Part shown: positions 2,897 to 30,131 of the stretch, piece by piece
How positions within the stretch are numbered: the stretch's first letter is position 1
Layout of the letters: each line of letters opens with the position of its first letter
Assembly: GCA_036752305.1 (NCBI GenBank)
Contig: DAIOSZ010000001.1
Location: 2,556 to 60,724, forward strand
Reading direction: 5' to 3'
DNA length: 58,169 nt
Origin: Burkholderiaceae bacterium
GTDB lineage: Bacteria; Pseudomonadota; Gammaproteobacteria; Burkholderiales; Burkholderiaceae_C
Made by a program: the position numbers and the translations under genes
The notes under the pieces: generated by a model
The model's database searches: none
The model's input: the letters and a program-made list of their open reading frames with translations, nothing else
Told to the model about the DNA's origin: nothing

Positions 2897-3373
2897 ATGC
2901 CGCCCTCCCCCTTGACTCACTTTGACGCGCAAGGCCAGGCGCACATGGTGGACGTTTCCGCCAAGCCAGCCACGCACCGCATCGCCCGCGCGGCGGGCCG
3001 CATCTCGATGAAGCCCGAAACCTTGGCGCTGATCGCCAGCGGTTCAGCCAAGAAGGGCGATGTTCTTGGCGTAGCGCGTCTTGCCGGCATCATGGGCGCA
3101 AAAAAGACCAGCGAGCTGATCCCGCTGTGCCACCCGATCGCGCTGACCCGTGTGGCCGTGGAGTTTGAATTGATCCCGGGCGAAAGTGCCGTCGAATGTG
3201 TAGCCACCACCGAAACCATAGGCCCGACGGGCGTTGAAATGGAGGCGCTGACGGCTGTTCAGGTGGCACTGCTGACGGTTTATGACATGTGCAAGGCGGT
3301 GGATCGGGGGATGGTGATTGAGTCCGTCGTGCTGCGGAGCAAAACCGGTGGCAAGTCCGGTGAATGGAGCTAG
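2897..3373 (+). CDS. moaC: cyclic pyranopterin monophosphate synthase MoaC
   Basis: 158 aa with typical MoaC motifs ([36 protein letters not shown]). Confidence 0.95.
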
Positions 3374-4131
3374 AACGAGTCGATTTGAACAACTCCTATG
3401 GGCCGGGCGCTTTTAGAATCCAACAACACCGTCCATGCACCCTTGCGGTCCAACAAGGGCAGATAGCGCAAATCCTCCAACAAATATCCTGCCGCCGCTG
3501 CCACTCTTTTTATTGCATCGGCTTCGCCGGGAAACCGAATCGATAACCTGTCGGCTGACTGAGATTCAGACAGTATGGCGGATGTTTGAGATTCGTAGTT
3601 TGTCCACAACCAGGGTTGTGCCGCTTGCGGCGTGCCCCCGAGATCTAGCGTCGCAGAGTCGAATTGCTCGCTTGGCCCGGTGAAGCTACGTAAGGCAATC
3701 CACTGTGGCCCTGTCCATGGCAAAACGCGCAAATCGTTGGGCGCTCTAACCAGATGATCACTGGTTATGTCCGCCGCATGGACAACACGGAATCGACTGT
3801 ATTCAAACACCACGTAAACCGGCCGGGCCTGCGCAACGGTATTCAAGCCATACAGCAACGCACCAAGCTGGAGAATCCCCACAACCGTCAGATCAGCTAT
3901 TAATTCTCGACGGGATTTATCGGAACTGCAAATAATGAGGGTGATGGCAGGACCCATGACCACGTCAACTAGGATCAACAGAAAAAAAAGCTGCCGACCT
4001 CCAGATAGCTCACGATATGGATAAGGATACCAGACGCCAAATACCAACGCCGCAGAGAGTGCAGCGACGGATACGCTGACCAATAAGTGCCAACCTGCTG
4101 CACGAATGCGAGCATTTACATTGTTCGCCAT
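3370..4131 (-). CDS. type IV pilin accessory protein, FimB/TfpX-Y-Z-like membrane protein
   Basis: N-terminal TM helices and the pattern WYPYP..GG...VD.VMGP..T......K.RREL..DL.....LQL.AL.YG.....ARP.YVVFE..RF.V recall FimB/TfpZ-type accessory proteins. It sits last in the pilA locus and has AT-rich codon usage. Confidence 0.55.
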
Positions 4132-4147
4132 ACCAACTTTCCTACGG

Positions 4148-5866
4148 CTATTTTAGGTTGACCATATCATCTTCATTTTTCCTTGTTTCCCACTCATCGT
4201 ATAGCCCTGCACACGCTTTTTCGGAAAGCAACCAACAACTGCGCTCTGCCCATATTCTAGCTTCGTCAGAGTAGCCATTTACTCGATAGGCACCAATTAC
4301 TTTTCGTATAGAAAGGGGTGCTGTTGCATACAGCATAAGATTCTCCCAATGCTGGATCTCGTTTTGAGACATGCCCGTTCGAGGCGTGGCCCGAAACAGA
4401 GCAATGGCATCCGGCCAGTCAACCAGCACAATGGTTCTAGGAGGTGATTCGTCATGCCCGCTCCCAATCTTCGCCACCTGGAAACGCAGTTCAGAAAACG
4501 CAGCCTCAACCCGCAAATAATCAATCACAATTACAACCGTAATCACCAGCATCCCCACCACGACGCCTGTCATCCAATTCTTCGATATCCGAACGATTGG
4601 CTTGGGAGGGCCTAGCCTTCCAGCTATCAGTCCGAGTATGCAGCCGAATGGGAGGAGAAAATACGGATAATTGAGTGGAAACTCTAGCATCGCATGCACG
4701 CCGAAAGCCAATACGCAACCAAGTATGCAGTAGTCCACCAACGAAGAAGTCGCCTTTACGAGACGACTCAGCCATACAATACTCAAGACAAGTATGAGCG
4801 CGGCAATCGGCCATCCCACCCACAACGCCAAGTCCAATATTAAATTGTGACTTTGCTCGAAATAGATATTTCCAATCGCCTCTTTAAAATCAAGATAAAC
4901 CCCAAAATATCCCAAATTGCTCTTTCCCCAACCATAACCGATCCAGAAACTTTTCGTGCTCGCAGCGAGGGCCATTTGCCACAGCATCAGGCGAATTTCA
5001 CCTGCATTTCGATCAACCAGGGTGCTTTGAATATCTGCATTGAGAATACGTCCAAGCATGCCCTGCGAGAATAGCGCGACAACGTAGCACCCAAATAAAA
5101 TCCAAATAGTGGTTTTGACTCGACCCGAAACATCCTTCGGCGGAAAAAACGAACAAGCAAGCACCCAAAGACTGAGCGTTAGTAAAGCATGGCGAGATTG
5201 CGTCATGGCAATACCCCAAAGAATCCAGCCACATCCAAGCAACGCGCTCAGGTTTCCGATCCGCCGAGAGCCCCACAACAATCCAATTCCCATTATTCCG
5301 CACAAGAGCAATGTTGCCAGTTGATTGGGCTGTGCAAGATTGGCGTACGGCCTAGAACCCTCATAAAAGGGGAGTATCCACACTTCGAAAAGATCAGGGT
5401 TTTTTGCATAACCCAGCCATTGATAACTGGCAATACCGGTAGATCCGATGGCGGCAAATGTCATGGCCATGATCACCAAATAGCCAATCGAAATCTCTTG
5501 TCCGCATGCTTCTGATGCGTAGCTCAGCTGATAACACACTGCAAATCCAAACAGCACAAGCGCAGTAATGATCGCATTACTTTTCAGCGGCATTAAGCCA
5601 ATGCTGTACTGCAATAGCGGCGTGATCGCCAAAAGGAGCAGCGCCAAGCTGGCCCTAGGAACTGCCAATTGTTTCGGCATGCCGCGCAGACAGTAAATAC
5701 CAATGAATGCCAGCGCAATGGACGCCCAGGCATTAGAGTGAAACGCCATCCAAGGCGGGTAATGATTGGGTATCAACCACGCGCACATCAGCAGCGCAAG
5801 AAGAATGGATTCCCAAACAGCCGCGTCGCGCCACCCGATGGTGCGCTTCATTCCGAAATCATGCAT
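4148..5866 (-). CDS. pilin O-oligosaccharyltransferase, TfpO/PilO/PglL-like (O-antigen-ligase/Wzy_C family)
   Basis: Polytopic membrane protein with the NHYPPW..FHSN motif of PglL/Wzy_C-type ligases and a soluble C-terminal domain. I chose the ATG at 5866 (alternative 5851) because the listed 6052 start overlaps pilA and the pilA terminator. Confidence 0.75.
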   Translation of the reverse strand: MHDFGMKRTIGWRDAAVWESILLALLMCAWLIPNHYPPWMAFHSNAWASIALAFIGIYCLRGMPKQLAVPRASLALLLLAITPLLQYSIGLMPLKSNAIITALVLFGFAVCYQLSYASEACGQEISIGYLVIMAMTFAAIGSTGIASYQWLGYAKNPDLFEVWILPFYEGSRPYANLAQPNQLATLLLCGIMGIGLLWGSRRIGNLSALLGCGWILWGIAMTQSRHALLTLSLWVLACSFFPPKDVSGRVKTTIWILFGCYVVALFSQGMLGRILNADIQSTLVDRNAGEIRLMLWQMALAASTKSFWIGYGWGKSNLGYFGVYLDFKEAIGNIYFEQSHNLILDLALWVGWPIAALILVLSIVWLSRLVKATSSLVDYCILGCVLAFGVHAMLEFPLNYPYFLLPFGCILGLIAGRLGPPKPIVRISKNWMTGVVVGMLVITVVIVIDYLRVEAAFSELRFQVAKIGSGHDESPPRTIVLVDWPDAIALFRATPRTGMSQNEIQHWENLMLYATAPLSIRKVIGAYRVNGYSDEARIWAERSCWLLSEKACAGLYDEWETRKNEDDMVNLK

Positions 5867-5874
5867 TTCAAATA

Positions 5875-5902
5875 GCAAATAGAAAAGGCCGCTCACGCGG
5901 CC
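5875..5902 (-). terminator. rho-independent terminator/attenuator after pilA
   Basis: On the minus strand, GGCCGC-GTGA-GCGGCC (5887-5902) is followed by TTTTCTATTT. It lies between the pilA stop (5928) and the tfpO-like start. Confidence 0.6.
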
Positions 5903-5927
5903 TATTCTATTGAATGTTGATTGTATA

Positions 5928-6407
5928 TCAGGATTGCTTGCAGGAGCCTGGCAGGTATTTTCGATCCAATGGGTTACTGGCTGCTGGGCCACACCGCCAT
6001 TCGGTAATCGCCTGTCCTCCGTTGGTGTTGCCAGCCACTGCACTAGAGCCAATATACGGCTTTAGTTCAATCTGATTGGTCGTAGTGGTTACGCTGCCGC
6101 CCAACGCGCCGGCACTGGCAGTGACCGTAATCACGCCATTCGTGTCAGAAGAACCTCCGGTAACCATCTTGGTGGGGGAAATCGTGCAGCCAGCAATAGC
6201 CGACTGCGCGTCAGCAACCGGCGAACTCTGCAATGACTCTGTAACCGTTGTACGGCAAGAGGACGCCGCCAGAATCACCTCAGAAACCCGTGCACGCACG
6301 GTGTAGTCCTGATATGCCGGCAACGCGACCGCAGCCAGAATACCAATAATGGCCACCACGATCATCAGTTCGATGAGCGTGAAGCCTTGTTGCAGTTGAC
6401 GCTTCAT
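5928..6407 (-). CDS. pilA: type IVa major pilin
   Basis: It has the class III signal and N-methylation motif ([35 protein letters not shown]). A C-terminal disulfide loop ([18 protein letters not shown]) is followed by KQS. Confidence 0.95.
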
Positions 6408-6447: not shown

Positions 6448-6464
6448 AGCGAGAACCGTGCCTG
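6448..6464 (-). promoter_or_regulatory. sigma-54 (RpoN) -24/-12 type promoter for pilA
   Basis: The minus strand reads CAGGCACGGTTCTCGCT, i.e. GG-N10-GC with GGCACG-N4-TCGC (consensus TGGCACG-N4-TTGC). The -12 element lies about 42 nt upstream of the pilA ATG. Confidence 0.55.
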
Positions 6465-6562: not shown

Positions 6563-8968
6563 TCACTTGATGCAAACCTGCCTGACCTGCTTCACATCTG
6601 TCAGTCCCATCAGCACCTTCTCCATACCGTCCATCTTCAAGGTTCGCATGCCGCCTTCCACAGCCTTGGCAAAGACTTCGGCCACGCGGGCGCGTTCTTG
6701 AACGAGCTTCTTGATGGCGTCGTCGGCAATCAGCAGTTCATGCAGACCGACTCGGCCCTTGTAGCCTGATCCGGCGCACTTGGCACAGCCCACCGCCTTG
6801 TACAGCTTGAGCTGCCCATCCTGCGCGTAGCGCTTGGTCCATCCGTCCAGCAGACGCTTGTACTCGCCGTCGGTATCGGCTTTCCAGGCAGCCGTGCGGC
6901 CCAACTCTTCTGCGTATTCCATGACGAAGAGGTGCAGTTCGTCCTCTTCCGGCACATACGCGGCCTTGCAATCGCCGCACAGACGCCTGGCCAGGCGCTG
7001 GGCCAGGATGCCGAGCAACGCGTCCGCGAAATTGAACGGGTCCATGCCCATGTCCAGCAGGCGCGTGATCGACTCAGGCGCGGAATTCGTGTGCAGCGTT
7101 GAAAACACCAAATGCCCGGTAAGCGAAGCTTCCACGCCCATCGACACGGTTTCCTTGTCGCGGCTTTCGCCGACCATGATGATGTCGGGGTCGGCACGCA
7201 GAAAGGCGCGCATGACCAGCGCAAAGTCGATGCCGGCCTTTTTATTGATTTGTACCTGACGCAAACCCTTCTGGGTGATTTCCACCGGGTCTTCGGCCGT
7301 CCAAATCTTGGTTTCCGGTGTGTTGAGATGGTGCAGGATGGAGTGCAGCGTGGTGGTCTTGCCGGAGCCCGTCGGTCCACAAACATAGAAAAGACCATAG
7401 GGCTTTTCTATGGTTTTGACCAACCGCTCGCGGTTGTGGTCCGTCAAACCCAGTTTTTCCAGCGGAATCGGCTCGCCTGCCGCCAAAATACGCATCACCA
7501 CATCTTCAACACCGCCGGCGGATGGAATGGTGGCAACACGCAATTCAATGTCGAGTGGTCCGAAACGCTTGAATTGGATTTTTCCATCCTGCGGCTTGCG
7601 CTTCTCGGAAATGTCGAGGTCACACATGATCTTCAGGCGCGTGATCATGGCCTGGCGAAAATGCGCGGGAACCTCGATGTAGGGTTGCAGGACGCCGTCG
7701 ATGCGCAGGCGCACACCCGTCTTGGCTTTCCCGGGCAGCGGCTCAATGTGAATGTCAGAGGCTTTTTGCTGGTACGCGTCAACAATGACCTTGTTGACGA
7801 ATTTGACCAGCTCATTGTCTGCCGCAAGCGATGCGACCGCGTCCTCGCCAGCGGGTTCATCATCGGCCATGGGCTGCAGGTCGGCCAACAACTGGTCAAT
7901 CGTCCCAGCCGCCCCCGAGCCATAAATCTGCTCGACGGTTTGCGCGAACTCACGCTGCGTCGTCACTTTCAGCACCAGGTGCGGCTGCTGCCGGAAAACC
8001 TGCTGAACCACCCGGCCCGCGCGCACGGCTTCCGGGTCCAGGCACAAAATTACCAGTCCCTCGGGTACCTGTTCCAGCGGCAGCCAGCCTTGTTCTTCAA
8101 TGAATTCGCGCTTGAGCGGGTTGTGCAGGTTGTCGATGCGCAGCCGCGCATTGGCCGCCCCTTCGTACGCAACGCCAAAAAACTTGCCCAGCGCATGACC
8201 AACGTCGCTGGCCGTCAACCCCAGCTTGCCGATGAGCACATCTTCCACGTGAACCTGTTCGTCACGCGCCCGCTGCACACATTCCTGCAATTCCGCCTGC
8301 GTTACACGCCCATCGGTGACGAGTGCGTCGTATTTGGTGGGCTTGTGCTGGGCAACGAATTGCCCTCCCGAGCGCTGGCGCTGCCGGATCGCCGTGGCCA
8401 GCGTCTTGCACAACTGGGCCGCGCCATCCACGTCAAGCGCAGAAAATGGACGATCGGCTTTGTTGTTGATGATCTGCAGCACGCCGTGCAACTGCTTCCC
8501 GTCCAAAATGGGCTGCACCAGCATCTGCTTGGTGCGGTATCCGGAGCGCTTGTCAACCTCCTGCAAAAAAGTAAGGTCCGGATGGAGCCTGCGCAGATCT
8601 TCCTCGACGTAGACATCGGCGATGTTGAGCGGCTGTCGGCTCATGGCCACGTAGCCGGCAAGACTTTGCGTGCCCACCGGTAGCTTGAGTTCCCGCGCGG
8701 TGTTCAGGCCCGTTTTGACCTTGGAGACAATGGAGGCCTGATCCTCACCCATCGCGTACAGCGTGAAGCGATCGGCGTTGAACAGCCGACAAATGTCGCT
8801 GCTCAGCTCAAGCATGAGCTGATCAAGGTTCTCGGTGTCGTGGATGCGCGTGGTGACCTGTTGCAACTGGCGGAAAAACAGCGCCTCGAACGAAAGCCCA
8901 CGCTTGTCGCCGCCTTCTGTCCTTGGAAAACCGCCGAGCGTGGAGTTGGGTGCCTCAACGCCGTTCAC
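6563..8968 (-). CDS. PilB/GspE-family secretion/pilus ATPase with N-terminal GAF domain (801 aa)
   Basis: Residues ~25-190 look like a GAF domain. A T2SSE_N-like region follows, then Walker A (GPTGSGKTTT), Walker B (IIMVGESRD), a His box (GHLVFSTLHTN) and a tetra-Cys motif (CGDC...CAKC). The GTG start at 8968 overlaps the upstream stop. Confidence 0.85.
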   Translation of the reverse strand: MNGVEAPNSTLGGFPRTEGGDKRGLSFEALFFRQLQQVTTRIHDTENLDQLMLELSSDICRLFNADRFTLYAMGEDQASIVSKVKTGLNTARELKLPVGTQSLAGYVAMSRQPLNIADVYVEEDLRRLHPDLTFLQEVDKRSGYRTKQMLVQPILDGKQLHGVLQIINNKADRPFSALDVDGAAQLCKTLATAIRQRQRSGGQFVAQHKPTKYDALVTDGRVTQAELQECVQRARDEQVHVEDVLIGKLGLTASDVGHALGKFFGVAYEGAANARLRIDNLHNPLKREFIEEQGWLPLEQVPEGLVILCLDPEAVRAGRVVQQVFRQQPHLVLKVTTQREFAQTVEQIYGSGAAGTIDQLLADLQPMADDEPAGEDAVASLAADNELVKFVNKVIVDAYQQKASDIHIEPLPGKAKTGVRLRIDGVLQPYIEVPAHFRQAMITRLKIMCDLDISEKRKPQDGKIQFKRFGPLDIELRVATIPSAGGVEDVVMRILAAGEPIPLEKLGLTDHNRERLVKTIEKPYGLFYVCGPTGSGKTTTLHSILHHLNTPETKIWTAEDPVEITQKGLRQVQINKKAGIDFALVMRAFLRADPDIIMVGESRDKETVSMGVEASLTGHLVFSTLHTNSAPESITRLLDMGMDPFNFADALLGILAQRLARRLCGDCKAAYVPEEDELHLFVMEYAEELGRTAAWKADTDGEYKRLLDGWTKRYAQDGQLKLYKAVGCAKCAGSGYKGRVGLHELLIADDAIKKLVQERARVAEVFAKAVEGGMRTLKMDGMEKVLMGLTDVKQVRQVCIK

Positions 8969-9756
8969 AGCTCAAACTCCTGTCCGGCGTGCAGCCAGCG
9001 AATGTCGTGCACCACATTGCCGTTGATCGACTGGGTTTGGTCAAAGCGTTGAACCTCTTCCATGATGAGATCGGTTTCGGCCGGTTTGGTATGCGTGATG
9101 TAGATGGGAAAGCGCTTGTCGGTGTCGATGCAATCGAGCTCATCGGCCAGCGTATGCGGCGCCAGGTGCAGCGCGCGGCGCGCGAGATTGGCCTCTCGAT
9201 TGCTGAACGCGGTCTCGATGACCAGCATCGCCACGTTGAGTTGGTTAAGCCGCTGCCAGAACGCCGGGTTGCGCTCGGTATCGCCCGTGAACACCCAGCA
9301 GCCAGCGCCCTCGGTGATCGCATAACCCACCGCCGGCACTGTGTGCACCGCGGGCAGAACCTCGATCACCTTTCCCTCCAGCGCCAGCACCTGACCGATC
9401 CGAATCGGGACATAGCGTATGAATGGTGCCTGCGGCGTCGGAATCCGGCTGAAGTCAGGCCAGATCAAATCGTTGAAGATGTGCGCCTGCAGCGCGTCGA
9501 TCGTGCCTTGCAGCGCATACACCAGCACCGGCGCCTTTCGCCGCGCCGCGATCGAATCCACCATCAAAGGCAGCGCCGCCACGTGATCGAGATGCGAATG
9601 CGTGATCAGCACATGGTCAATGGCCGCCATTTCATCGAGCGTCAGATCGCCCACGCCAGTACCCGCGTCCACGAGGATATGCCTATCCACCAGGAACGAC
9701 GTCGTTCGGCAATCCTTGGCGATCGCGCCAGAACAGCCCAGCACGCGAACTCTCAT
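8965..9756 (-). CDS. class II 3',5'-cyclic-nucleotide phosphodiesterase (metallo-beta-lactamase fold)
   Basis: It carries the class II PDE signature HSHLDHVAALP (HxHLDH). Size is 263 aa. Confidence 0.8.
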   Translation of the reverse strand: MRVRVLGCSGAIAKDCRTTSFLVDRHILVDAGTGVGDLTLDEMAAIDHVLITHSHLDHVAALPLMVDSIAARRKAPVLVYALQGTIDALQAHIFNDLIWPDFSRIPTPQAPFIRYVPIRIGQVLALEGKVIEVLPAVHTVPAVGYAITEGAGCWVFTGDTERNPAFWQRLNQLNVAMLVIETAFSNREANLARRALHLAPHTLADELDCIDTDKRFPIYITHTKPAETDLIMEEVQRFDQTQSINGNVVHDIRWLHAGQEFEL

Positions 9757-9779
9757 GTGCGTTTCTCCCTTTAGGCGGC

Positions 9780-12029
9780 CTACTTGCTGTCGAAGTTGGT
9801 CGCTCCATCCCAGGACAGGTCAAGCGGCGCTTCGCGCATGTCGATGACCCGCTGCGAGAACAACTGATAGAGACCATTTTCCGGGGCCATGCGCTTGAGG
9901 TTGAACAGGTGCAACTCGGCCTGGTCCCAATCCTGGGCGCGAAAGGCCTTGAGAAACGCCCCCCACAACTTGAGTTCATCACCAGCTTTCGCCGCATCAC
10001 CCTCGCGCAACGTGTAGATCGACACGGCCTGCTGCTTGCCCTTGACACGCACGCGGTCGAGTTCCTGCCAGGGAAGATCTGGCGCGGCGCGGCGTGTCTG
10101 CTCGCTGGCCACGATGTCCACGTCGTAAAAGCGCGTCAGCCCTTCGAGCCTTGCGCCAAGATTGACCGAGTCGCCGATCACCGTGTAGGCGCGGCGCGAA
10201 TCCGACCCCATGTTGCCCACGCACATGGAACCGGTATTGAGGCCGATGCCCACACCGACTTCCGGCAAGCCCCTCGCGCGGTGGTCGGCATTCACTTCGT
10301 TGATTGCATCCAGCATCTGGCGCGCCGCGCGGCACGCCAGCGCCGCGTGGTCGGGTTGGTCCACCGGAGCGCCCCAGAACGCCATCACGCAATCGCCCAT
10401 GAACTTGTCGGTGGTACCCATGTTGGAATCGATCACCTGTGTGAGCCGCGAGAACAGATTGTTCAGCAAGCCCTGCAATGCCACCGGATCCATGCGTTCG
10501 GACAGTTTCGTAAACCCGCGCATGTCGCAGAACATCACGGTCAGCTCCTTGTTCTTCGCCTCCATGCTGTAGCTCTCGGGACGCTTGACCATCTCCTCAA
10601 CGAGCGCGGGCGGTACGTAGGTGCCAAACAAGCGCGCCAAACTGCGCTTGGATCGGCTTTCAACGAAATACCCGTAGCTCATGTTGAGCGCAAAGGCCGC
10701 CAGCACCAGCAAAACCGAAGCCGCCAAGGGCATCACCAGCCCCTGACTCTCGTACAGCCACCAATTGAGCCCGGACAAAGCCGCTAGCACGCCCACGCAC
10801 ACCAGCACGGCGATGGGCGCGGTCACCGCCGGCAGCACGAATGCCAGCAGCAGCCCCACGGCCAGCAGCATGAGAACGTCATAGCCCATCGCATAGTCGG
10901 GAACAACGGGCAGGCGGTCATCCAGAAGCCCCGACAGCAGGTTTGCGTGAATTTCCACCCCTGGATACACCTGGCTGACAGGCGTCACGCGCAAGTCCTG
11001 AAGGCCCGGCGCCGTGGTTCCAACAAACACCACGCGCCCCTGCAATTGTCCCGGCGTCAGCTTGCCTTCGATGATGTCGGAGGCGGAGACATACCGAAAA
11101 GACCCGCCCGCCTCTCCGCCCTGCCCGCGAAAAGGCACCAGTGTCGCGACGCGGCGATCTACTGGCAATGCCTGAAAATCCTTGCCATCGCGGCGCAACT
11201 TGACGCTTTCAAGATGCTGATAACTACGGCCAAGAAAGCGCTCGGGCGGGAACCCGGGCAGCACCTGTGGCATGCCCTGCGTGAGCCGATAGACAGCCAG
11301 CGCCAGCGATTCGTAGTACCCACCTTTGTATTCCACCAGCAACGGCACCGCCCGCACCATGCCGTCGCCGTCCACGATCGGGTTGAAGAATCCGCCCAGC
11401 GGCGCCGCGCTCGCAAAGCGCGCGAGATTCGACCCGTAGCCGTTCCAACTCGTGAAACGGATCGGCCGCCCCTTGAGCGCGGCGGCGTCCATCACCGGCG
11501 CGGGGATGACTCCGGAAGTTCGTCCGTCCCGGTCACTCGTGAAGTAATAGCCCATCACGACGGCCCGATTCTTCAGCGACTGGGCAAACTGCCCGTCGTA
11601 GTCCAGCTTGGGGGCTAACTCTCCGAACTTCTCGACAAAATTCGCGTCGTCCTTGAGAGCCCCTTTCGAGAGGTCCTCCAACCGCCTCAGGCCCGAGCTT
11701 TCATCCGGCTCCGCAAACACCACGTCAAACGCCGCCACCGCGATCTTCTGCTCGTCAAACAGCGCGTCGATCATGCGCGCAACCTTGTCGCGTGGCCAAG
11801 GCCAGCGGCCCACCGCAGCCAGGCTCTTTTCGTCGATGTCAACGATGACGATCCGGTCGTCAAGCGTCTGCGGCATCGTGGCCCGCAGCCGCGCGTCGTA
11901 GATCACATCGTCGAGTTGCTGCACCAAGCGCAGCGGCTGCACTTCCATCGCGTGCAGCAGCGCAAACAGCAGCGGCACCAACGTGAGCGCCACCCGTGGC
12001 CAAGACTTGAAAATGGCGCCAACGGACAT
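9780..12029 (-). CDS. CHASE2 sensor domain-containing class III adenylate/guanylate cyclase
   Basis: N-terminal CHASE2 signature (IVDIDEKSLAAVGRWPWPRD), then TM helices. The C-terminal cyclase domain has both metal Asp residues (FCDMRGFT, FMGDCVMAFWGAP) and VNLGARLE. Confidence 0.9.
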   Translation of the reverse strand: MSVGAIFKSWPRVALTLVPLLFALLHAMEVQPLRLVQQLDDVIYDARLRATMPQTLDDRIVIVDIDEKSLAAVGRWPWPRDKVARMIDALFDEQKIAVAAFDVVFAEPDESSGLRRLEDLSKGALKDDANFVEKFGELAPKLDYDGQFAQSLKNRAVVMGYYFTSDRDGRTSGVIPAPVMDAAALKGRPIRFTSWNGYGSNLARFASAAPLGGFFNPIVDGDGMVRAVPLLVEYKGGYYESLALAVYRLTQGMPQVLPGFPPERFLGRSYQHLESVKLRRDGKDFQALPVDRRVATLVPFRGQGGEAGGSFRYVSASDIIEGKLTPGQLQGRVVFVGTTAPGLQDLRVTPVSQVYPGVEIHANLLSGLLDDRLPVVPDYAMGYDVLMLLAVGLLLAFVLPAVTAPIAVLVCVGVLAALSGLNWWLYESQGLVMPLAASVLLVLAAFALNMSYGYFVESRSKRSLARLFGTYVPPALVEEMVKRPESYSMEAKNKELTVMFCDMRGFTKLSERMDPVALQGLLNNLFSRLTQVIDSNMGTTDKFMGDCVMAFWGAPVDQPDHAALACRAARQMLDAINEVNADHRARGLPEVGVGIGLNTGSMCVGNMGSDSRRAYTVIGDSVNLGARLEGLTRFYDVDIVASEQTRRAAPDLPWQELDRVRVKGKQQAVSIYTLREGDAAKAGDELKLWGAFLKAFRAQDWDQAELHLFNLKRMAPENGLYQLFSQRVIDMREAPLDLSWDGATNFDSK

Positions 12030-12066
12030 GGTAACAATACCGTTCAGCGCCGCGGGTCTGCGCCGC

Positions 12067-12723
12067 CTAGTGCACCACGAACTGCATGGAAGTACCCGCG
12101 AGATCGAGCATGTCGCCGTTGCTCAAGGTCGTGGGCGCGCTGCCAACGGGCTTACCGTTGACTTTTGGCGGCTCGGCTCCCTCAACGTGCGCGAGCACGA
12201 AACCATTGGGCCGGCGCGTGATGGAGGCCACACCCACTCCGGGCTTGCCCAGCGTCGTGACGACTTTGGTCAGCGGCACTTCGCGGCCGGCCGCGGGCCC
12301 CGTGGTCACCTTGATCGAGGCCTGCATCTCCATGCCGCTGTTAACAAACCCCGAAGGAGCAGCCGTCTGGGCCGCCACGGGCGCCGCGGGCACGGCGCCC
12401 GGCCGTACGATCATGGTCTTGTCGTAGTCACCGACCGGTTCGTTGACGAAGCGGATCTTGTACTTGCCAATCTCGACCGAGTCGTTGTGGTGCAAGGCCT
12501 GCTTCTTGATGGCCTTGCCGTTGATGTAGGTACCGTTGGTGCTGTTGAGATCCTCCAAGAAGATCTCCGGCCCGGCCATCTGCACGACCGCGTGCTCGCC
12601 GCTGACGGCAAGATTGTCGATCACGATGTCGTTGTATGGTCGCCGGCCCAGGGTGGTGCGATCCTTGACGATCTGCACTTCCTTGATGACGACACCGTCG
12701 ATCGAAACGATCATCTTCGGCAT
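12067..12723 (-). CDS. FHA domain protein (N-terminal FHA plus C-terminal FHA-like domain)
   Basis: FHA signature TLGRRPYNDIVIDNLAVSGEHAVV...STNGTYING at the N-terminus. A second beta-rich segment (TTLGKPGVGVASI...VNGKPV) follows a Pro/Ala linker. Confidence 0.85.
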   Translation of the reverse strand: MPKMIVSIDGVVIKEVQIVKDRTTLGRRPYNDIVIDNLAVSGEHAVVQMAGPEIFLEDLNSTNGTYINGKAIKKQALHHNDSVEIGKYKIRFVNEPVGDYDKTMIVRPGAVPAAPVAAQTAAPSGFVNSGMEMQASIKVTTGPAAGREVPLTKVVTTLGKPGVGVASITRRPNGFVLAHVEGAEPPKVNGKPVGSAPTTLSNGDMLDLAGTSMQFVVH

Positions 12724-12795
12724 GGTCGACTCCTGACAATTTCTATGAATGAGTGGGTTGGAATGGGCCGGACGCGAGACTTGATGCGACTCGGT

Positions 12796-13581
12796 TCATG
12801 GTGAAAGCCATCGTGCCAGCAAACCCTTTCGGGTACCTTCCACGCGCGCCTTCACCAACAACACGGAAATATTATCCCGCCCCCCATTGGCATTGGCGGT
12901 ATCAATCAAGCTCTCCGCAACCTGCTCCAGGCTCTGCTGTGCGCCGAGCAAACGGGCAATCGCTTCATCATCCATCATGTCGGACAAGCCATCAGAGCAC
13001 ATCATGTACAGATCACCGGACTCGACCTTGAAGTCATTGACCTCCAGATCCACGGCCTCATCGACACCGAGCGCGCGCGTCACCAAATTCTTGTTCACCG
13101 AAACCGCCGCCTGCTCGGCCGTGATATAGCCTGCATCCAGTTGCTCCTGCAACAATGAGTGATCGCGCGTGATCTGCATCAGCACGCCGGCACGCAAGCG
13201 ATAGCAGCGCGAATCTCCCACATGCCCCAGCACCAGGCGGTTGCCGTGGAACACTCCGACCACCACAGTCGTGCCCATGCCCGCGTATTGCCGGTTCGTT
13301 GACGCCGCCCTGAAGATGGACGTATTCGCGTTCTCCACGCAGATGCGCAGCGCCCGTTGAATCTCACGCGGCATGGCTTTGCGCTCGACCTCGCGCAGCC
13401 AGCGGGACAGTTCGGACACGATGAACGCCGTTGCCATGCCGCTGGCCACTTCACCCGCCGCATATCCGCCCATGCCGTCGGCCAGCACGGCCACGCCGGT
13501 TGGCGGATCGAAATGCACCGCGTCTTCGTTGTTGCCGCGCACCTTCCCAGGATCGGTGCGCGCGCAGAATTCGTACTGCAT
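12796..13581 (-). CDS. PP2C-family Ser/Thr protein phosphatase
   Basis: Motifs RGNNEDA, LADGMGG, CSDGLSD and GGRDNISV are present. I chose the ATG at 13581; the alternative TTG at 13614 would overlap the kinase stop by 4 nt. Confidence 0.9.
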   Translation of the reverse strand: MQYEFCARTDPGKVRGNNEDAVHFDPPTGVAVLADGMGGYAAGEVASGMATAFIVSELSRWLREVERKAMPREIQRALRICVENANTSIFRAASTNRQYAGMGTTVVVGVFHGNRLVLGHVGDSRCYRLRAGVLMQITRDHSLLQEQLDAGYITAEQAAVSVNKNLVTRALGVDEAVDLEVNDFKVESGDLYMMCSDGLSDMMDDEAIARLLGAQQSLEQVAESLIDTANANGGRDNISVLLVKARVEGTRKGLLARWLSP

Positions 13582-13610
13582 CGAAGCCGACGACTTGTTT
13601 CCGGCACCCG

Positions 13611-16364
13611 TCAAGATGTCGACCCTCCGTCGTCCGGGCGGCGCCCGGGCAGATGCGGTGCATCCAGTTTTTGCGTTTTCTGGCTATCCGGCTGAGCGGC
13701 TGGTTGGTAGCGGGAAATCGGCTGCGTCGCGTCGCTGCCTTCAAACGACATGGGCATCGTATGGTCGGCGGCGAATGGCACTGGAGCCGACGCGGGGGCG
13801 GCACTCGCCGCCGCAGGCGCCGCGACCAAGGCCACAAATCCTACCGCCAGTATCTGCTTGAGATCGTCCGCCAACTGGTCACCGTCCTGGTAGCGCACCT
13901 CGGGCCGCTTGGTCAGCGCAAGGGCCGCCAGACGAGCCAGATCCGGCGACAAATCCGGTCGGAAACTGCGCAAGTCGGGCGCCTCCTCATTGGCAATCTT
14001 GTACATCAGGCCAGCCATCGAGTCAGCCCGGAACGGCAGGTTGCCGGTCAGCATCTGGAACAGCATGACGCCCAGCGAATACAGGTCGGAGCGGCCATCG
14101 ACACGCGTTCCCGCGATCTGCTCGGGCGACATATAGCTCGGCGTGCCCAGCACCAGGCCGGTCTTCGTCTTGCTTGAATCGGTGATGCGCGCGATGCCGA
14201 AGTCGGTCACCTTCACCGCGTCGCTCGTGGGCTCATACATGATGTTCGCTGGCTTGATGTCGCGATGCACCACGTTTTGACGGTGTGCGTAAGCCAGCGC
14301 GCGCGCAACGCGCTCGACGATGGACAAGACCTGTGGCACCGGCAGCAACTGGCCGGGACGGCAGTAGTCGGCCAAATCCTTGCCTTTGAGAAATTCCATC
14401 GCGATGTAGGCCAGATCGTGCTCCTCGCCGGCATCGAAGATCGTCACGATATTCTGATGCTGCAGGCGCCCCGCCGTCTCGGCTTCGCGGAAGAAGCGTT
14501 CGCGCGCGTCGTCCAGGTCGCTGCCTTCGAATTCCTGGCTCAGGGCCATGGTCTTGATGGCCACTACGCGGCCAATCTTCGGATCTTTGCCCTGGTAGAC
14601 CACGCCCATGGCGCCTTTGCCCAACTCCTTTTCCACCTGGTAGCGGCCCAGCATGGGTTTTTCCACCGCGCCCCCGTCCAGCAGCATGGTGCCGCCCGGA
14701 TGCGCGGTGCCGCCGCCCAGGATGACCGTCTCCGACAAATTCTTGGCGCGGTTGAGCTTGGCGGCCAGATCCTTGTAGTTCGGCTTGTAACTGGCCATGT
14801 GCTCGTAGACCGCCTGCGCCTTGTTGAACTGACGCTTGCGCTCGAAATCCAGCGCCAAGTTGTACAGGTTGTCCATCAACGCATCGCCGATACCGGGTTC
14901 CAACGGCACGCGGCGGAAGCGATCAAAAGCCATGTCCAACTGGCCCTGGCCCTGCAACGCCAAGCCCATCATCCGGTTCGTCTCCGCCGATTCTTCATCC
15001 GATTTCACCTTGCCGGCTTCCGTGACCAGGAAGCGCTTGGTCGTGATAAGCAAATACCCTGCCACCAGCAGCGCAGCCGGAAACACCAGCCGCACCCAGA
15101 TGGACGCGCCCGCCAGCAAGCCATATTCGGAGCCCAGCAGCAACAGCAGCAAAGCCGCCGTGATGCCCGCCGCCGGACCGGCTTTCAACCGCGGCAGCAA
15201 GCCAATCACATAGGCGGAAACGACCAGAAACGCCGCCAGCGCGAGCCAGATACCCCACCCGGGTTGAACGATGAAATGTTCGCTCAGGATGCTGGAGGTG
15301 ATGTGCGCCATCGTCTCCGCGGGCGACAAGCCGGGATGCCCAGGCACCGGAAACTGCACGCCCACGCCAGCCGCCGTGGCGCCGATGATGACAATCTTGT
15401 CGGCAAATTTGGCCGCCGGCACCTTGCCGATCAGCACGTCGGAGAACGAATCGACCGGAAACGGCGCCTTGCCATCGCGGTTGGCATAAAACTGCGGGAG
15501 CATCAGCGCCGAGTCATCGGTGCGAACCTTGAGCTTGCCGATCTGCACCGAATCACCGGGATTGAGCCGCACATCACCCACGCCAAGGTTCAGGCTGCTC
15601 AGCGCCGTCATCAAGGCCATCGACGGAGCCGATCGGCCGAAATAGTCCACCAGCAGCGCCTCCTGGCGCACCGCGCCGTCGGTGTCCTGAAACTGGTTGA
15701 GGTGTCCAATACCGGCGGCCGCCTCGCCGATGACGGGAATCGGAAACTGTCCGCGCACCGCAGGCACCGCGAACCCCGGCAGCGACTCCACCGTGCTCTT
15801 GAGCACATAGGGCGGCAGCGGCTGGTCGGCGCGGCCCTGGGGCTCACCCAGCGTATAGACCGCCGGCGTCAGCACGCGGGCCGCCTTTTGCATGCTGGCC
15901 GCCAACTGACCATCGGCATCCAGCACGCGCTCGGCCTCGCCAATGACCTGATCCAGTTGCTGACGGATTTCGGGCGCCTCCGGTGGCGCCTTGGCCAGAA
16001 CATCCTTGATCTTGCGGATATAGCCCATGCCCCGGTCAGTCTGCGGCTCCAGGAAGAACGCCGTGTGCGCGATCGTCTTCGCGCCAGCCTGCGACAACTG
16101 ATCAATCAACTTGCCGTGCACGTCACGCGCCCAGGGCCAGCGGCCGATGTTGGCGATGGAGTGGTCGTCGATGGCGATCACCGCGATGCGCTCGGAAGGC
16201 TTGCGGCTGCTGGCCGTGCTGGCGGTGTCGTAGAAACGCCGCTCTAGCGAACCAAAAACGTCAGTCCACTGATTGAGTGCCAATGCAAGCGCCACGATGC
16301 ACAGCCCCAAGAACCAGTCCTGGCGCCAGATGGCCCCGCCCGGTGCCGCCAATTTGAATTTCAA
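13611..16364 (-). CDS. CHASE2 sensor domain-containing Hanks-type Ser/Thr protein kinase (917 aa)
   Basis: N-terminal CHASE2 (IAIDDHSIANIGRWPWARD), then TM helices. The C-terminal kinase has GKGAMGVVY, VAIK, HRDIKPANI, DFGIA and GTPSYMSPE. The only start near the N-terminus is a TTG. Confidence 0.9.
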   Translation of the reverse strand: MKFKLAAPGGAIWRQDWFLGLCIVALALALNQWTDVFGSLERRFYDTASTASSRKPSERIAVIAIDDHSIANIGRWPWARDVHGKLIDQLSQAGAKTIAHTAFFLEPQTDRGMGYIRKIKDVLAKAPPEAPEIRQQLDQVIGEAERVLDADGQLAASMQKAARVLTPAVYTLGEPQGRADQPLPPYVLKSTVESLPGFAVPAVRGQFPIPVIGEAAAGIGHLNQFQDTDGAVRQEALLVDYFGRSAPSMALMTALSSLNLGVGDVRLNPGDSVQIGKLKVRTDDSALMLPQFYANRDGKAPFPVDSFSDVLIGKVPAAKFADKIVIIGATAAGVGVQFPVPGHPGLSPAETMAHITSSILSEHFIVQPGWGIWLALAAFLVVSAYVIGLLPRLKAGPAAGITAALLLLLLGSEYGLLAGASIWVRLVFPAALLVAGYLLITTKRFLVTEAGKVKSDEESAETNRMMGLALQGQGQLDMAFDRFRRVPLEPGIGDALMDNLYNLALDFERKRQFNKAQAVYEHMASYKPNYKDLAAKLNRAKNLSETVILGGGTAHPGGTMLLDGGAVEKPMLGRYQVEKELGKGAMGVVYQGKDPKIGRVVAIKTMALSQEFEGSDLDDARERFFREAETAGRLQHQNIVTIFDAGEEHDLAYIAMEFLKGKDLADYCRPGQLLPVPQVLSIVERVARALAYAHRQNVVHRDIKPANIMYEPTSDAVKVTDFGIARITDSSKTKTGLVLGTPSYMSPEQIAGTRVDGRSDLYSLGVMLFQMLTGNLPFRADSMAGLMYKIANEEAPDLRSFRPDLSPDLARLAALALTKRPEVRYQDGDQLADDLKQILAVGFVALVAAPAAASAAPASAPVPFAADHTMPMSFEGSDATQPISRYQPAAQPDSQKTQKLDAPHLPGRRPDDGGSTS

Positions 16365-16501: not shown

Positions 16502-17197
16502 TCAGGAACTTGCGCCGGTGTGTTTGGCCGCCTGGCGGGCCGCCAGCCACTTGCCCAGGCCCACCACGAAGGCGGCCCCCGCAGCGGCGGCGGCGTAGTG
16601 CAGCCAAGGGTTGGCGGCCAGCACGTCTTTCAGTGCCACGTCGCTGACGATGGTCTCGCCGCCCACCCAGCCGATGAGCGCGGCGCCGAGCACCACGATG
16701 ACGGGATAACGCTCCATCAGCTTGATCATCAATGTGCTGCCGAAGATCACCAGCGGAATGCTGATCGCCAGGCCGATAACCAGGAGCGCGGTATTGCCCT
16801 TGGCTGCAGCCGCCACGGCGATCACGTTGTCCAGGCTCATCACCAAATCGGCAATCAGGATGGTGCGCACGGCCGCCATCATGCCGCCGCCGCCTTCCTT
16901 GCCGTCCTCGCCCTCTTCTTCCTCGCCCAGCAGCTGCACGCCGATCCACAGCAGCAGAATGCCCCCGATGATCTGCAAATACGGCAGTTGCAGCAACTTG
17001 GCCGCCACCACCGTCAAGACCACCCGCAGCACCACGGCCGCGCCGGAGCCGAACATGATGGCCTGCTTCTGCTGCTGGGGCGGCAGCGAGCGCGCGGCCA
17101 GCGCAATGACCACGGCGTTGTCGCCCGAGAGAATGATGTTGATCCAGATGATCTTGAGCAGACCGATCCAGAAGTCCGAGGTTTGGAGCATTTCCAT
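16502..17197 (-). CDS. TerC/YjbE-family integral membrane protein
   Basis: It has the motif ILSGDNAVVIALAA and a second DNVIAVAAAA repeat. I chose the ATG at 17197 (MEMLQTSDFW); the listed start at 17239 is a GTG just after a terminator. Confidence 0.8.
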   Translation of the reverse strand: MEMLQTSDFWIGLLKIIWINIILSGDNAVVIALAARSLPPQQQKQAIMFGSGAAVVLRVVLTVVAAKLLQLPYLQIIGGILLLWIGVQLLGEEEEGEDGKEGGGGMMAAVRTILIADLVMSLDNVIAVAAAAKGNTALLVIGLAISIPLVIFGSTLMIKLMERYPVIVVLGAALIGWVGGETIVSDVALKDVLAANPWLHYAAAAAGAAFVVGLGKWLAARQAAKHTGASS

Positions 17198-17245
17198 GGT
17201 TTTGTCTCGTCTGACGCTTGTCGCTTGTTGTGTGGCCACTCGGCC

Positions 17246-17270
17246 AAAAAAAACGCGGGCCGAGCCCGCG
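17246..17270 (-). terminator. rho-independent terminator downstream of sucD
   Basis: On the minus strand, CGCGGGC-TCG-GCCCGCG is followed by eight T (plus-strand A-run 17246-17253). Confidence 0.7.
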
Positions 17271-17373
17271 CGTGGAATCCAGGAATGGTGCCGGGGTGAG
17301 CGGCGCCAACGGCGGGTCAGCCCAGTGTAACGGCGCCAGACCCGCCCAAACTACGTGGTTGTACGGGTATGCC

Positions 17374-19686: not shown

Positions 19687-20601
19687 ATGCCATCCATCTT
19701 CATTGACGGCGAAGCCGGCACCACCGGCCTGCAGATCCGCGAACGCCTGGCCGACCTGCCCCAGGTGGGCGTGCTCAGCATCGCTCCCGAGCGTCGCAAG
19801 GACCCGGCCGCCAAGCGCGAGTTGCTGGAACAGGCCGATCTGGTCCTGCTGTGCCTGCACGACGACGCCGCGCGGGAGACGGTTGCGCTCATCGACGGCC
19901 TGCCGGGCCGCAAGCCGCGCATCATCGACGCCTCCACCGCGCACCGCACAGCGCCTGGCTGGGTGTATGGCTTTCCCGAGCTTTCGGCGGCGCAGGCCGA
20001 GGCGGTGCGGCGCGCCGAACGCGTGGCCAATCCGGGCTGCTACCCCACCGGCGGCATCGCGCTGATGCGCCCGCTGCGCGACGCCGGCCTGCTGCCGGCC
20101 GACTATCCGGTGGTCATGCAGGGCTTCTCGGGCTATTCCGGCGGCGGGCGGCAGATGATCGAGGCCTACGAAGTGACCCACAGCGCGTCGCCGCTGGAGG
20201 TCTACGGCCTCAACCTGAGCCACAAACACGTGGCCGAGTTGCAGCAATACGCCGGGCTCAGCCGCCGCCCGATCTTCATTCCCGCCGTCGGCAATTTCCA
20301 CAGCGGCATGATCGACCATGTGGCGTTGCATTTCGACCTGCTGCGCGGCGTCAACCACGTCCGCCAACTGCACGAGGTGCTGGCCGCGCACTACGCAGGC
20401 AGCGAATGGGTGCGCGTGGTGGAGGCCAACCCCGGCGGCAAGGTCGAACCGACGCAGTTCAACGGCAGCAACACAATGGAACTGTCGGTCTACGGCAACG
20501 ACGCCCAGCGCCAGGCGGTGCTGGTGGCGCGCTTTGACAACCTGGGCAAGGGCGCCAGCGGCGCGGCGGTGCAAAACCTCAAACTGATGCTGGGCATTTG
20601 A
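19687..20601 (+). CDS. argC: N-acetyl-gamma-glutamyl-phosphate reductase (short/type 2 form)
   Basis: GEAGTTG nucleotide-binding N-terminus and active-site NPGCYPTG. Confidence 0.9.
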
Positions 20602-20620
20602 CCGAAGGGTCGGCACCCCG

Positions 20621-20977
20621 ATGTCCTCCGACGCGAGCTTCATGCAATACGTGGCCGACCAGTGCGCGCGCGCCGGCGGCATCACGTTCAAGCGCATGTT
20701 TGGCGAATATGCGTTGTACTGCGACGCCAAGGTCGTCGCCTTCGTCTGCGACAACCAGTTCTTCCTCAAGCCCATCGAGGCCGTGCGGCCCCTGCTGGGC
20801 GCGCTGGACGAAGCGCCCGCCTACCCCGGCTCCAAGCTGTATTGGCGCCTGACGCAAGAATTGGAAGACGCGCCGCTGCTGGCCCGCATCGTGCGCGCCA
20901 GTGCCGATGCGCAACCCGCGCCCAAACCCAAGGCACCCAAAAAACCACGCGTTCCGGGGCGCTCGGCCAAGTCCTAA
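20621..20977 (+). CDS. TfoX/Sxy N-terminal-domain-only protein
   Basis: The pattern ITFKRMFGEYALYCDAKVVAFVCDNQFFLKP is typical of the TfoX_N domain. At 118 aa there is no TfoX C-terminal domain. Confidence 0.65.
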   Translation: MSSDASFMQYVADQCARAGGITFKRMFGEYALYCDAKVVAFVCDNQFFLKPIEAVRPLLGALDEAPAYPGSKLYWRLTQELEDAPLLARIVRASADAQPAPKPKAPKKPRVPGRSAKS

Positions 20978-21761: not shown

Positions 21762-22829
<1,068 letters not shown>

Positions 22830-23459: not shown

Positions 23460-23505
23460 ACTGTGATTAATTTCACGAAATTGATCAAACCCTAGGACAA
23501 ACCTC

Positions 23506-24084: not shown

Positions 24085-24200
24085 GGCAAGGCCGGGGCGA
24101 GGCCGAACTGTCAGCGCCCGGCGCACCCGCCGCGTTGCTACGGTCAAGCCCGCGCGTTTCGGCGGGGAACCCAACCGGGTGTGCCCGGACCTAAGGACAC

Positions 24201-26847: not shown

Positions 26848-26851
<4 letters not shown>
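25835..26851 (+). CDS. RND efflux periplasmic adaptor (HlyD/MFP family)
   Basis: Signal sequence, lipoyl/coiled-coil hairpin region (AQAEAELAQARLSLERQRALQRQGFVSQAALD) and a beta-barrel C-terminus. The stop overlaps the RND start. Confidence 0.85.

Positions 26852-30127
<3,276 letters not shown>

Positions 30128-30131
<4 letters not shown>

Follow-up and report, generated by a model that had tools for sequence, protein, structure and literature searches.

What governs a pilus-type motor ATPase that is encoded at the end of an operon of signalling genes and carries a sensor-like domain at its own N-terminus? The question is raised by a 58,169-nt stretch of DNA from a metagenome-assembled Burkholderiaceae bacterium (the window; all positions are those of this whole stretch), in which a minus-strand cassette spanning 6563-16364 encodes, in order of transcription, a Hanks-type Ser/Thr kinase, a PP2C phosphatase, an FHA protein, a class III nucleotide cyclase, a class II phosphodiesterase (PDE) and a PilB/GspE-type ATPase fused to a GAF domain. 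From the sequence comparisons described here we lean, with modest confidence, towards the view that this conserved operon places a PilB-family paralogue under direct post-translational control by two circuits, one based on a cyclic mononucleotide (cNMP) and the other on phospho-threonine (pThr).

The operon-like organisation of the cassette is directly evident in its gene content, spacing, synteny and motif integrity. The PDE stop and ATPase start codons share the nucleotides GTGA (8965-8968), the kinase stop and a possible PP2C start share TTGA, with an alternative PP2C ATG 29 nt further downstream, and the remaining gaps are 72, 37 and 23 nt. The six packed open reading frames (ORFs), with these same junctions and gaps, had been described in an initial annotation made by reading the DNA, and our searches of Pfam and NCBIfam (the latter with curated cut-offs) recovered every domain that it had named for the kinase, PP2C, cyclase, PDE and GAF-ATPase. 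The GC content at third codon positions (GC3) was of the coding type in all six ORFs (0.73-0.82), in a genome of ~68% GC. Scans for promoters and terminators inside the cassette returned matches at chance level.

An alignment of the GAF and MshEN region of the ATPase was scanned against one genome per species, and at least 583 stretches (species genomes) encode a relative of this module. Our neighbourhood survey comprised the best 80 of these relatives, 57-63% identical and found in Ramlibacter, Polaromonas, Rhodoferax, Curvibacter, Hylemonella, Caenimonas, Variovorax and Acidovorax, which are soil and freshwater bacteria of the Comamonadaceae type. The proteins of the window were mapped onto these loci by tblastn, and the 61 loci that spanned sucD to the ATPase gene were considered informative. 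The full kinase-PP2C-FHA-cyclase-PDE-ATPase order was present in 47 of these 61, in the slot between sucCD-terC and pilA and in at least eight genera. Such a survey had been called for by the initial annotation, and it bore out the cassette as an ordered unit with operon-like gaps: the median distances across orthologues were 7, 47, 55, 15 and -3 nt, and the overlap between the PDE and ATPase genes was conserved.

The other 14 informative loci contained reduced cassettes without the kinase and/or the cyclase and/or the PDE. Five lacked all three genes, four lacked the cyclase and the PDE, two the cyclase only, two the kinase and the cyclase, and one the kinase only. The kinase was present in 52 of the 61 loci, and the cyclase and the PDE were missing in 13 and 9, respectively. 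The PP2C and FHA genes were each found in all 61 loci and always stood directly upstream of the ATPase gene, indicating that a predicted pThr reader, a predicted pThr eraser and the motor form the core of the system.

More distant cassettes, with an N-terminal region 46-51% identical, maintained the six genes in unchanged order. They also carried a gene with cNMP_binding and Rhodanese domains between the PDE and ATPase genes (8824-9909 in locus L081, 8869-9954 in L082 and 1445-2503 in L083), which reinforces the cNMP theme, and in L081 a gene with GAF and HD_5 domains (12389-14011) lay between the ATPase and pilin genes. Some distant relatives of the ATPase (e.g. P0281) had tandem GAF domains, and a profile search of 1.84 billion cluster representatives retrieved 443 clusters at E ≤ 1e-30. 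Judging from these comparisons, ATPases with a fused GAF form an old family of fairly wide distribution, and the surrounding signalling cassette is a mark of a betaproteobacterial clade. One Rhodoferax metagenome-assembled genome contained two GAF-ATPase copies on separate contigs (L038, JANMKM010000687.1; L047, JANMKM010000448.1), which could be a true duplication or could stem from a strain mixture or from binning contamination.

The ATPase contains the motifs that define the secretion-ATPase superfamily: Walker A (GPTGSGKT), an Asp box (EDPVE), Walker B (DPDIIMVGESRD), a His box (TGHLVFSTLHTN) and the tetracysteine zinc motif CGDC...CAKC. Its best solved relatives were PilF, PilB and GspE (E of ~1e-95 to 1e-102; GspE 1p9r, 3.6e-98), with PilT reaching only 1e-33. 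Its earlier description as a GAF-fused PilB/GspE ATPase was correct for the GAF and T2SSE domains, but had overlooked an MshEN-like domain lying between the GAF and the core. The relaxed 24-residue cyclic di-GMP (c-di-GMP) motif (Wang et al. 2016, PMC5013675) was absent from the window ATPase and found in 0 of 76 orthologues, in a scan that matched the consensus sequence used as positive control; as the motif is missing from every orthologue, we ruled out c-di-GMP sensing by this domain. For the ATPase start we favour the GTG at 8968, which overlaps the PDE stop, because M-x-x-V is conserved at the N-termini of 35 relatives. A query with the full-length protein retrieved homologues of about 800 aa. 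The public record for this protein, HMS04179.1, is 772 aa long, 29 residues shorter than from this start (8882-8968, minus strand).

Among solved structures, the GAF domain was closest in sequence to the tandem GAF of Anabaena CyaB2 with bound cAMP (1ykd, E 5.4e-26); next came a GAF from an HD-GYP protein (2e-9), then those of PDE2A, PDE5, PDE10 and PDE6 (PDE2A GAF-B, 5e-8) and that of PtsP (2e-4). Chains of cNMP-GAFs made up 13 of the 17 GAF matches at E ≤ 1e-4, as is proper to a member of the cNMP-GAF family. The matching segments are IAG and DxxTGFRT, which we take to line the nucleotide pocket in PDE2A GAF-B, the ligand contacts of which were reportedly listed by Martinez and colleagues in 2002. 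Residues T69, A104, G105, D139, S142, T146 and Q165 were unvarying in nearly all 76 orthologues, and T69, S102 and T146 were retained in four distant orphan relatives too. An AlphaFold2 (AF2) model was confident over the GAF and MshEN-like parts, with pLDDT values of mostly 80-96 in the GAF, and matched GAF structures. By its sequence the domain is of the cyclic-mononucleotide type, and we predict that it binds such a ligand.

A putative source of this ligand is encoded upstream. The cyclase has the motifs FCDMRGFT, DKFMGD, GDCVM, SVNLGARLE and YTVIGDSVNLGARLE. Alignment to CyaB (3r5g), CyaC (1wc0) and Cya2/IlaC shows that both metal-binding Asp residues, the transition-state Asn and Arg, and a Lys and a Thr for substrate specificity are in place. 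These specificity residues, Lys (in DKFMGD) and Thr (in YTVIGD), are those of adenylyl cyclases, the corresponding residues of the guanylyl cyclase Cya2 being Glu and Gly; cAMP is therefore the expected, and most likely, product. The PDE carries the class II signature HSHLDH at aa 53, and its best solved relative was yeast PDE1 (4ojv, E 1.5e-9), with the FNDLIWPD stretch included in the alignment. The PDE match spans only ~60 residues of a 340-position model, so that the substrate range is only loosely predicted; orthologues also matched the Apyc1 cNMP-PDE family. The protein has neither a signal peptide nor a hydrophobic segment and is therefore predicted to be cytoplasmic.

Likewise, the components of a pThr circuit appear intact. 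The kinase has a complete set of Hanks-type motifs at aa 582-748 (GKGAMGVV, VAIK, HRDIKPAN, DFG and SPE) and hydrophobic segments at ~aa 372-442, after CHASE2. An additional hydrophobic segment past the catalytic domain (aa 835-853; 13812-13868, minus strand) is followed by a tail of ~60 residues; with it, the protein would have an uncommon topology or be anchored in the membrane by its C-terminus. In both CHASE2 proteins, kinase and cyclase, membrane segments flank CHASE2 as expected. The two CHASE2 domains share 26% identity (E 1e-21), a value that neither supports nor excludes a common ligand, and we did not retain the idea that they are recent duplicates perceiving the same signal. The phosphatase scored 248.4 bits against the NCBIfam model Stp1/IreP (NF033484, cut-off 230), also matched Pfam PP2C_2 (3e-15) and has the metal-binding motifs NEDA, DGMGG, GDSR and GGRDN.

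The FHA protein had been annotated as a double FHA protein, a claim that stands for one half of it. Its N-terminal domain is a canonical FHA whose GR, SGEH and NSTNGT loops were unvarying in 70 orthologues, including those from loci without a kinase. The C-terminal half reached only E 0.05 with Pfam, but was homologous to the N-terminal half in a profile-profile comparison with hhalign (94.6%, E 7e-8; 62 distinct orthologous N-domains against 67 C-domains). The SxxH and NGT phosphopeptide loops are deleted in this half, which lacks the marks of an FHA reader and is, by its sequence, a degenerate FHA-like copy. An AlphaFold model of the protein had a mean pLDDT of 61, with the first 43 residues below 50, and matched FHA structures through an aligned half that is not specified; our view of the C-terminal half is based on the profile-profile comparison instead. 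The linker motif EKTM, with Thr103 (12415-12417, minus strand) as a candidate phospho-acceptor, was kept in 63 of 70 orthologues and deleted or substituted in seven cyclase-less cassettes, a correlation that is not clean. For the six proteins as a whole, the writer, eraser and reader roles assigned initially each survived inspection of domains and of catalytic or binding motifs.

The operon is followed by a pilin locus, which had been described as a sigma-54-type pilA locus. This description was confirmed: in 36 of 50 orthologous loci a GGCAY-N5-YYGCW element preceded the start codon (ATG) of pilA by 50-73 nt, as compared with 0.9% of shuffled intergenic regions. A pilin gene lay within 600 nt downstream of the ATPase gene in 44 of 64 loci, and no pilA was recognisable in the other 20. 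Related loci differed in how many pilA copies followed the ATPase gene, with a range of 0 to 4. The coordinates and scores of the features are collected in Table 1.

Table 1. Features of the signalling cassette, its ATPase and the adjoining pilin locus; functions are predicted.
Feature	Position in window	Strand	Match or remark
GAF + MshEN-like + PilB/GspE-type hexameric assembly ATPase, 801 aa	6563..8968	-	T2SSE 2e-114, GAF 3.9e-11, MshEN 1.3e-6 (Pfam)
GAF domain of the ATPase, candidate cAMP/cNMP receptor	8384..8851	-	aa ~40-195
MshEN-like (T2SSE_N) domain without c-di-GMP motif	7889..8341	-	Pfam MshEN 1.2e-7
Class II (MBL-fold) cyclic-nucleotide PDE, 263 aa, putative cNMP eraser	8965..9756	-	MBL (metallo-beta-lactamase) fold; Pfam PDEase_II 1.1e-13
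CHASE2 class III nucleotide cyclase, 749 aa, putative cNMP writer	9780..12029	-	Pfam CHASE2 7e-56, Guanylate_cyc 2.9e-24
FHA protein, 218 aa, putative pThr reader/adaptor	12067..12723	-	Pfam FHA 1.7e-22; canonical FHA aa 23-86, C-domain aa ~135-218
PP2C Ser/Thr phosphatase, putative pThr eraser	12796..13614	-	272 aa from TTG 13614 or 261 aa from ATG 13581
CHASE2 Hanks-type Ser/Thr kinase, 917 aa, putative pThr writer	13611..16364	-	Pfam CHASE2 1.5e-47, Pkinase 2.9e-55
TerC-family membrane protein	16502..17239	-	Pfam TerC 1.6e-48; syntenic neighbour, membership in the system not shown
Sigma-54-type promoter of pilA, GGCACG-N4-TCGCT (GGCACGGTTCTCGCT)	6448..6462	-	55 nt before ATG
Type IVa major pilin PilA, 159 aa	5928..6407	-	Pfam Pilin 8.7e-11, N_methyl 4.4e-10
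TfpO/PglL-type O-oligosaccharyltransferase (pilin glycosylation)	4148..5866	-	Pfam Wzy_C_2 4.8e-13, PglL_A 9.8e-8
TfpX/TfpZ-family pilin accessory protein	3370..4131	-	NCBIfam NF041437 224 bits, cut-off 200

We infer the following scheme, from the ligand and its binding, through the kinase substrate, the FHA target and the direction of effect, to the pilus output. In one circuit, a membrane cyclase with a periplasmic CHASE2 sensor would produce a cNMP, most probably cAMP; the class II PDE would remove this compound from the cytoplasm, and the GAF fused to the ATPase would sense it, altering hexamer activity or docking to the pilus platform. In the other, pThr would be made by the Hanks kinase, which bears the other CHASE2 membrane sensor, erased by the PP2C phosphatase and read by the small FHA protein, possibly as an adaptor or inhibitor acting on the ATPase or its partners in the manner of Fha1 or GarA. 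The output would be the adjacent PilA, separately transcribed from its sigma-54 promoter and polymerised on a shared type IVa machine. The kinase and the cyclase/PDE pair would be add-on inputs, lost in some lineages and presumably replaced there by enzymes encoded elsewhere. The 'dedicated two-input gating' proposed initially is retained in part, but its unity was overstated, since the kinase, the cyclase and the PDE are each absent in some lineages.

In a narrower version of this scheme, which we put forward tentatively and consider possible though doubtful, the GAF-PilB paralogue would be a coincidence detector on the motor, combining direct binding of cAMP by the GAF with licensing at a pThr checkpoint that is made up of the CHASE2 kinase, PP2C and the two-domain FHA adaptor and follows the logic known from type VI secretion. 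It would then be the first type IV filament ATPase to act as a direct receptor of cAMP, and two periplasmic CHASE2 sensors would pick the PilB paralogue that drives the shared machine within seconds and without transcription. This choice of PilB would set pilus behaviour, for instance in the cyst-to-motile-rod switch of Ramlibacter.

Several observations weigh against dual control of a pilus motor, and the most pertinent concern the GAF. Comparison of its fold did not separate cNMP-binding GAFs from PtsP-type or bilin-binding ones; the best target-length-normalised TM-score was that of the PtsP GAF (3trc, 0.86), and the sole NCBIfam model matching the GAF region is also PtsP-type (E 6e-9). In the 9 of 61 loci without cyclase and PDE the GAF pocket was unchanged and GAF identity was 0.69 versus 0.70, and still more distant GAF-MshEN-T2SSE proteins are orphans among unrelated neighbours, with neither cassette nor pilin gene. 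The GAF therefore does not depend on a neighbouring cyclase, and its ligand would be either cAMP from other cyclases or a different compound. These data fit an explanation in which pThr control, through FHA and PP2C and with the kinase in cis or in trans, is the real mechanism. The GAF would then have a ligand different from the product of the local cyclase, whether another nucleotide or, as with the GAF of PtsP, a metabolite, or would serve solely for dimerisation or autoinhibition; cyclase and PDE may in that case have been recruited later in some lineages and have other receptors. The constancy of PP2C-FHA in 61 of 61 loci, set against 13 losses of the cyclase and 9 of the PDE, points the same way, and the separate cNMP_binding protein of the distant cassettes could be the true cNMP receptor. 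Nevertheless, the cAMP-binding CyaB2 GAF is ~17 orders of magnitude closer by sequence (5e-26) than other solved GAFs, PtsP reaching 2e-4, and the residues aligned with the Thr/Ser (phosphate and ribose) and Ala-Gly (backbone) contacts that PDE2A GAF-B is said to make are unvarying. Moreover, other class III cyclases are usual in betaproteobacterial genomes, so local loss leaves cAMP available. We consider pThr control with a GAF that reads something else unlikely, while giving it real weight.

Naming a phosphorylation site is a further difficulty: ATPase residues S26, T45, T133, T189 and T336/T337 are found specifically in the cassette clade, and the evidence for any of these, or for Thr103 of the FHA protein, was too weak to single one out. 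The six genes might instead be co-located for the sake of expression, with both circuits acting mainly elsewhere (on CRP-type regulators, on PilR/sigma-54 expression of pilA or on CHASE2-sensed envelope functions) and the ATPase not being a direct target. Control of pili by cAMP through Vfr is indeed transcriptional. The same is true of Sycrp1/2 in Synechocystis (PMC7690835). Additionally, one cNMP_binding protein is encoded in the window (23485-24084) and another in the distant cassettes, and pilA has its own sigma-54 promoter. Against this, gene order and tight spacing are kept across at least eight genera, including the 4-nt PDE/ATPase overlap, the reader domain is part of the ATPase polypeptide, and PP2C-FHA was never parted from the ATPase in 61 loci, making mere co-location, in our opinion, distinctly improbable. 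The identity of the machine also deserves caution. The ATPase fell below the cut-offs of both the PilB equivalog TIGR02538 (469.3 bits; cut-off 675.65) and the GspE model TIGR02533 (446.7 bits; cut-off 630.25), and is, as far as its sequence tells, a PilB-like paralogue rather than a canonical PilB or GspE; its machine is therefore deduced from the adjoining pilA only, and pilC, pilD and pilMNOPQ are absent from the window. It might drive another machine (type II secretion-like, MSHA-like or for DNA uptake only), the adjacency of pilA being a historical accident: its core is equally similar to GspE and to PilB/PilF, no pilA was recognisable in those 20 of 64 loci, the distant orphans have no pilin neighbour, and a TfoX_N gene and recA are nearby. 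Yet pilA follows in 44 of the 64 loci, the window contains the pilin-specific accessory genes for TfpO and TfpZ, and the genome paper on R. tataouinensis, which describes one pilus machinery, treats the GAF fusion as one of its PilB paralogues. No GspF, GspD or pseudopilin turned up in the surveyed flanks, which is a weaker point, as these were probed only with the window's own genes. A machine other than the pilus appears to us very unlikely.

The cassette lies within a longer run of genes on the same strand, which extends upstream of the kinase through terC, sucD and sucC. The terC gene sits between sucD and the kinase gene in most loci and is missing in some. A strong terminator-like hairpin in the sucD/terC gap (17253-17271, minus strand; 8 pairs, 7 of them G-C, then T7) lies only ~14 nt before the longest terC ORF start, and Rfam searches at gathering thresholds found no known RNA anywhere in the window, including the Mn riboswitch that often precedes terC genes. 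Beyond sucC are a TfoX_N gene (20588-20977, plus strand) and, adjoining it, recA (21762-22829, minus strand); the position of the former hints at a link between the pilus locus and DNA uptake. On the other side, pilA is followed by the genes for the TfpO/PglL-type glycosylase and the TfpZ accessory protein, and then by moaC on the opposite strand. A terminator-like hairpin (5886-5903) is directly 3' of pilA, and the likely TfpO start, ATG 5866 or 5851, is past it. At 0.49, the GC content of 4001-6000 is far from the ~68% of the genome, as is usual where segments for pilin glycosylation are exchanged, and the 49%-GC pilA-tfpO stretch may be such a segment. The cassette itself (GC 0.58-0.63 versus ~0.68) was considered as a recent horizontally acquired island, a possibility ruled out by its occupying the same sucCD-terC/pilA slot across genera.

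Farther away, the stand-alone cNMP_binding (CAP-type) protein (23485-24084, plus strand), encoded just past recA and ~7 kb from the cassette, is a candidate further cNMP receptor, and beside its gene is one for a MORN-repeat protein (24195-24788, plus strand). An AcrB-type transporter of the resistance-nodulation-division (RND) type is encoded in two overlapping ORFs (26848-28818 and 28815-30131, plus strand; model positions 10-604 and 846-1019); the gene is either frameshifted or a pseudogene, or the assembly is at fault here. Finally, the calpain-type domain Peptidase_C2, seldom seen in bacteria, occurs in a 555-aa protein (48266-49933, plus strand; E 1e-12).

Where type IV pilus motors are known to be controlled post-translationally, the signal is mainly c-di-GMP, acting through MshE, some PilB proteins and the FimX-PilZ-PilB route. 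To our knowledge, cAMP acts on pili only via transcription factors, gating by pThr through an FHA adaptor has been established in type VI secretion and not in pili, and CHASE2 is a periplasmic sensor domain of very wide occurrence to which few signals have been assigned. If control by both circuits is real, c-di-GMP-style motor gating would be united with the cAMP and pThr themes on one motor. This is a recombination of known kinds of motor regulation and not a new category, and the fusion was previously known as an annotation line from 2011. The initial annotation knew of no characterised version, and full-text literature that leaves most subscription journals outside its coverage likewise yielded no work that studied a GAF-fused PilB, this cassette or regulation of a PilB by FHA/PP2C. 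The cassette is no isolated case: its synteny extends over dozens of species (in Ramlibacter, Polaromonas, Rhodoferax, Curvibacter, Variovorax, Acidovorax and related genera), several of them cultured, so that direct testing is feasible. Cultured carriers include Polaromonas sp. JS666 (locus L010), Caenimonas soli, probably R. tataouinensis TTB310, and Curvibacter sp. CHRR-16, whose cassette naturally lacks cyclase and PDE; NZ_CP190017 and NZ_CP192467 are complete genomes with the cassette. The natural reduced cassettes, without kinase, cyclase or both, offer a ready dissection of which input is essential, and the cassette provides a genetic handle on CHASE2 and on the choice among PilB paralogues.

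Several known systems resemble parts of the cassette. In V. cholerae MshE (Wang et al. 2016, PMC5013675), as proposed here, a nucleotide messenger is read by the ATPase's own N-terminal domain and gating is post-translational, and the window ATPase retains an MshEN-like fold. Unlike MshE, it is devoid of the 24-residue c-di-GMP motif and has an extra cNMP-type GAF as candidate sensor, with putative writer and eraser genes in the same operon. This GAF has its highest sequence similarity with those of CyaB1/CyaB2 and mammalian PDE2/5/6/10, with which it also shares the IAG and DxxxGYRT pocket segments and the fold; in contrast to them, the output in the cassette is a secretion-superfamily ATPase, and there is a single GAF, with ligand binding that is predicted only.

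In P. aeruginosa, the kinase PpkA, the PP2C phosphatase PppA and Fha1 gate assembly of the H1 type VI secretion system post-translationally. As in the cassette, a membrane Hanks kinase with a periplasmic sensor, a PP2C and an FHA protein are encoded beside an envelope nanomachine. The sensor is CHASE2 in the cassette, not vWA, the machine is a PilB-type ATPase, and a second, cNMP-based circuit is joined to it; moreover, no type VI secretion genes are found in the window, and the FHA protein scores 38.5 bits against TagH TIGR03354, well below the cut-off of 120.25 and thus outside that family. We regard this threonine-phosphorylation pathway as an analogue only.

The same species controls type IV pili by cAMP through Vfr, in a system with CyaB and CpdA. 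In Synechocystis, cAMP control of type IV pili by Cya1, Sycrp1 and Sycrp2 is transcriptional (PMC7690835). In both, as would be the case here, cAMP made by a class III cyclase decides piliation and twitching, but the receptor there is a CRP-family transcription factor, whereas here the candidate is a GAF on the motor ATPase. Additionally, CpdA is a class III PDE and the cassette enzyme a class II PDE.

In Ramlibacter tataouinensis TTB310, a single type IV pilus machinery goes together with three paralogues of PilB (De Luca et al. 2011, PMC3164672); one of the three, Rta_37350, is listed as a GAF-PilB fusion close to recA (Table S5, PMC3164672). Compared by annotation, Rta_37350 is probably the orthologue of the window ATPase; in that work it appears as an annotation line, with no function or experiment and no mention of the neighbouring signalling genes (PMC3164672). 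For the N-terminal FHA domain, the closest solved structures and NCBIfam models were the actinobacterial GarA/OdhI and the FHA of Bdellovibrio DgcB. GarA has an N-terminal phospho-tail, whereas the cassette protein begins with the FHA core and has a degenerate second FHA-like domain. The targets of GarA/OdhI are metabolic enzymes and that of DgcB is a diguanylate cyclase. GarA and OdhI are small FHA proteins, as is the cassette protein; they are known as kinase substrates and enzyme regulators, and in DgcB the reading of pThr is tied to a second-messenger output.

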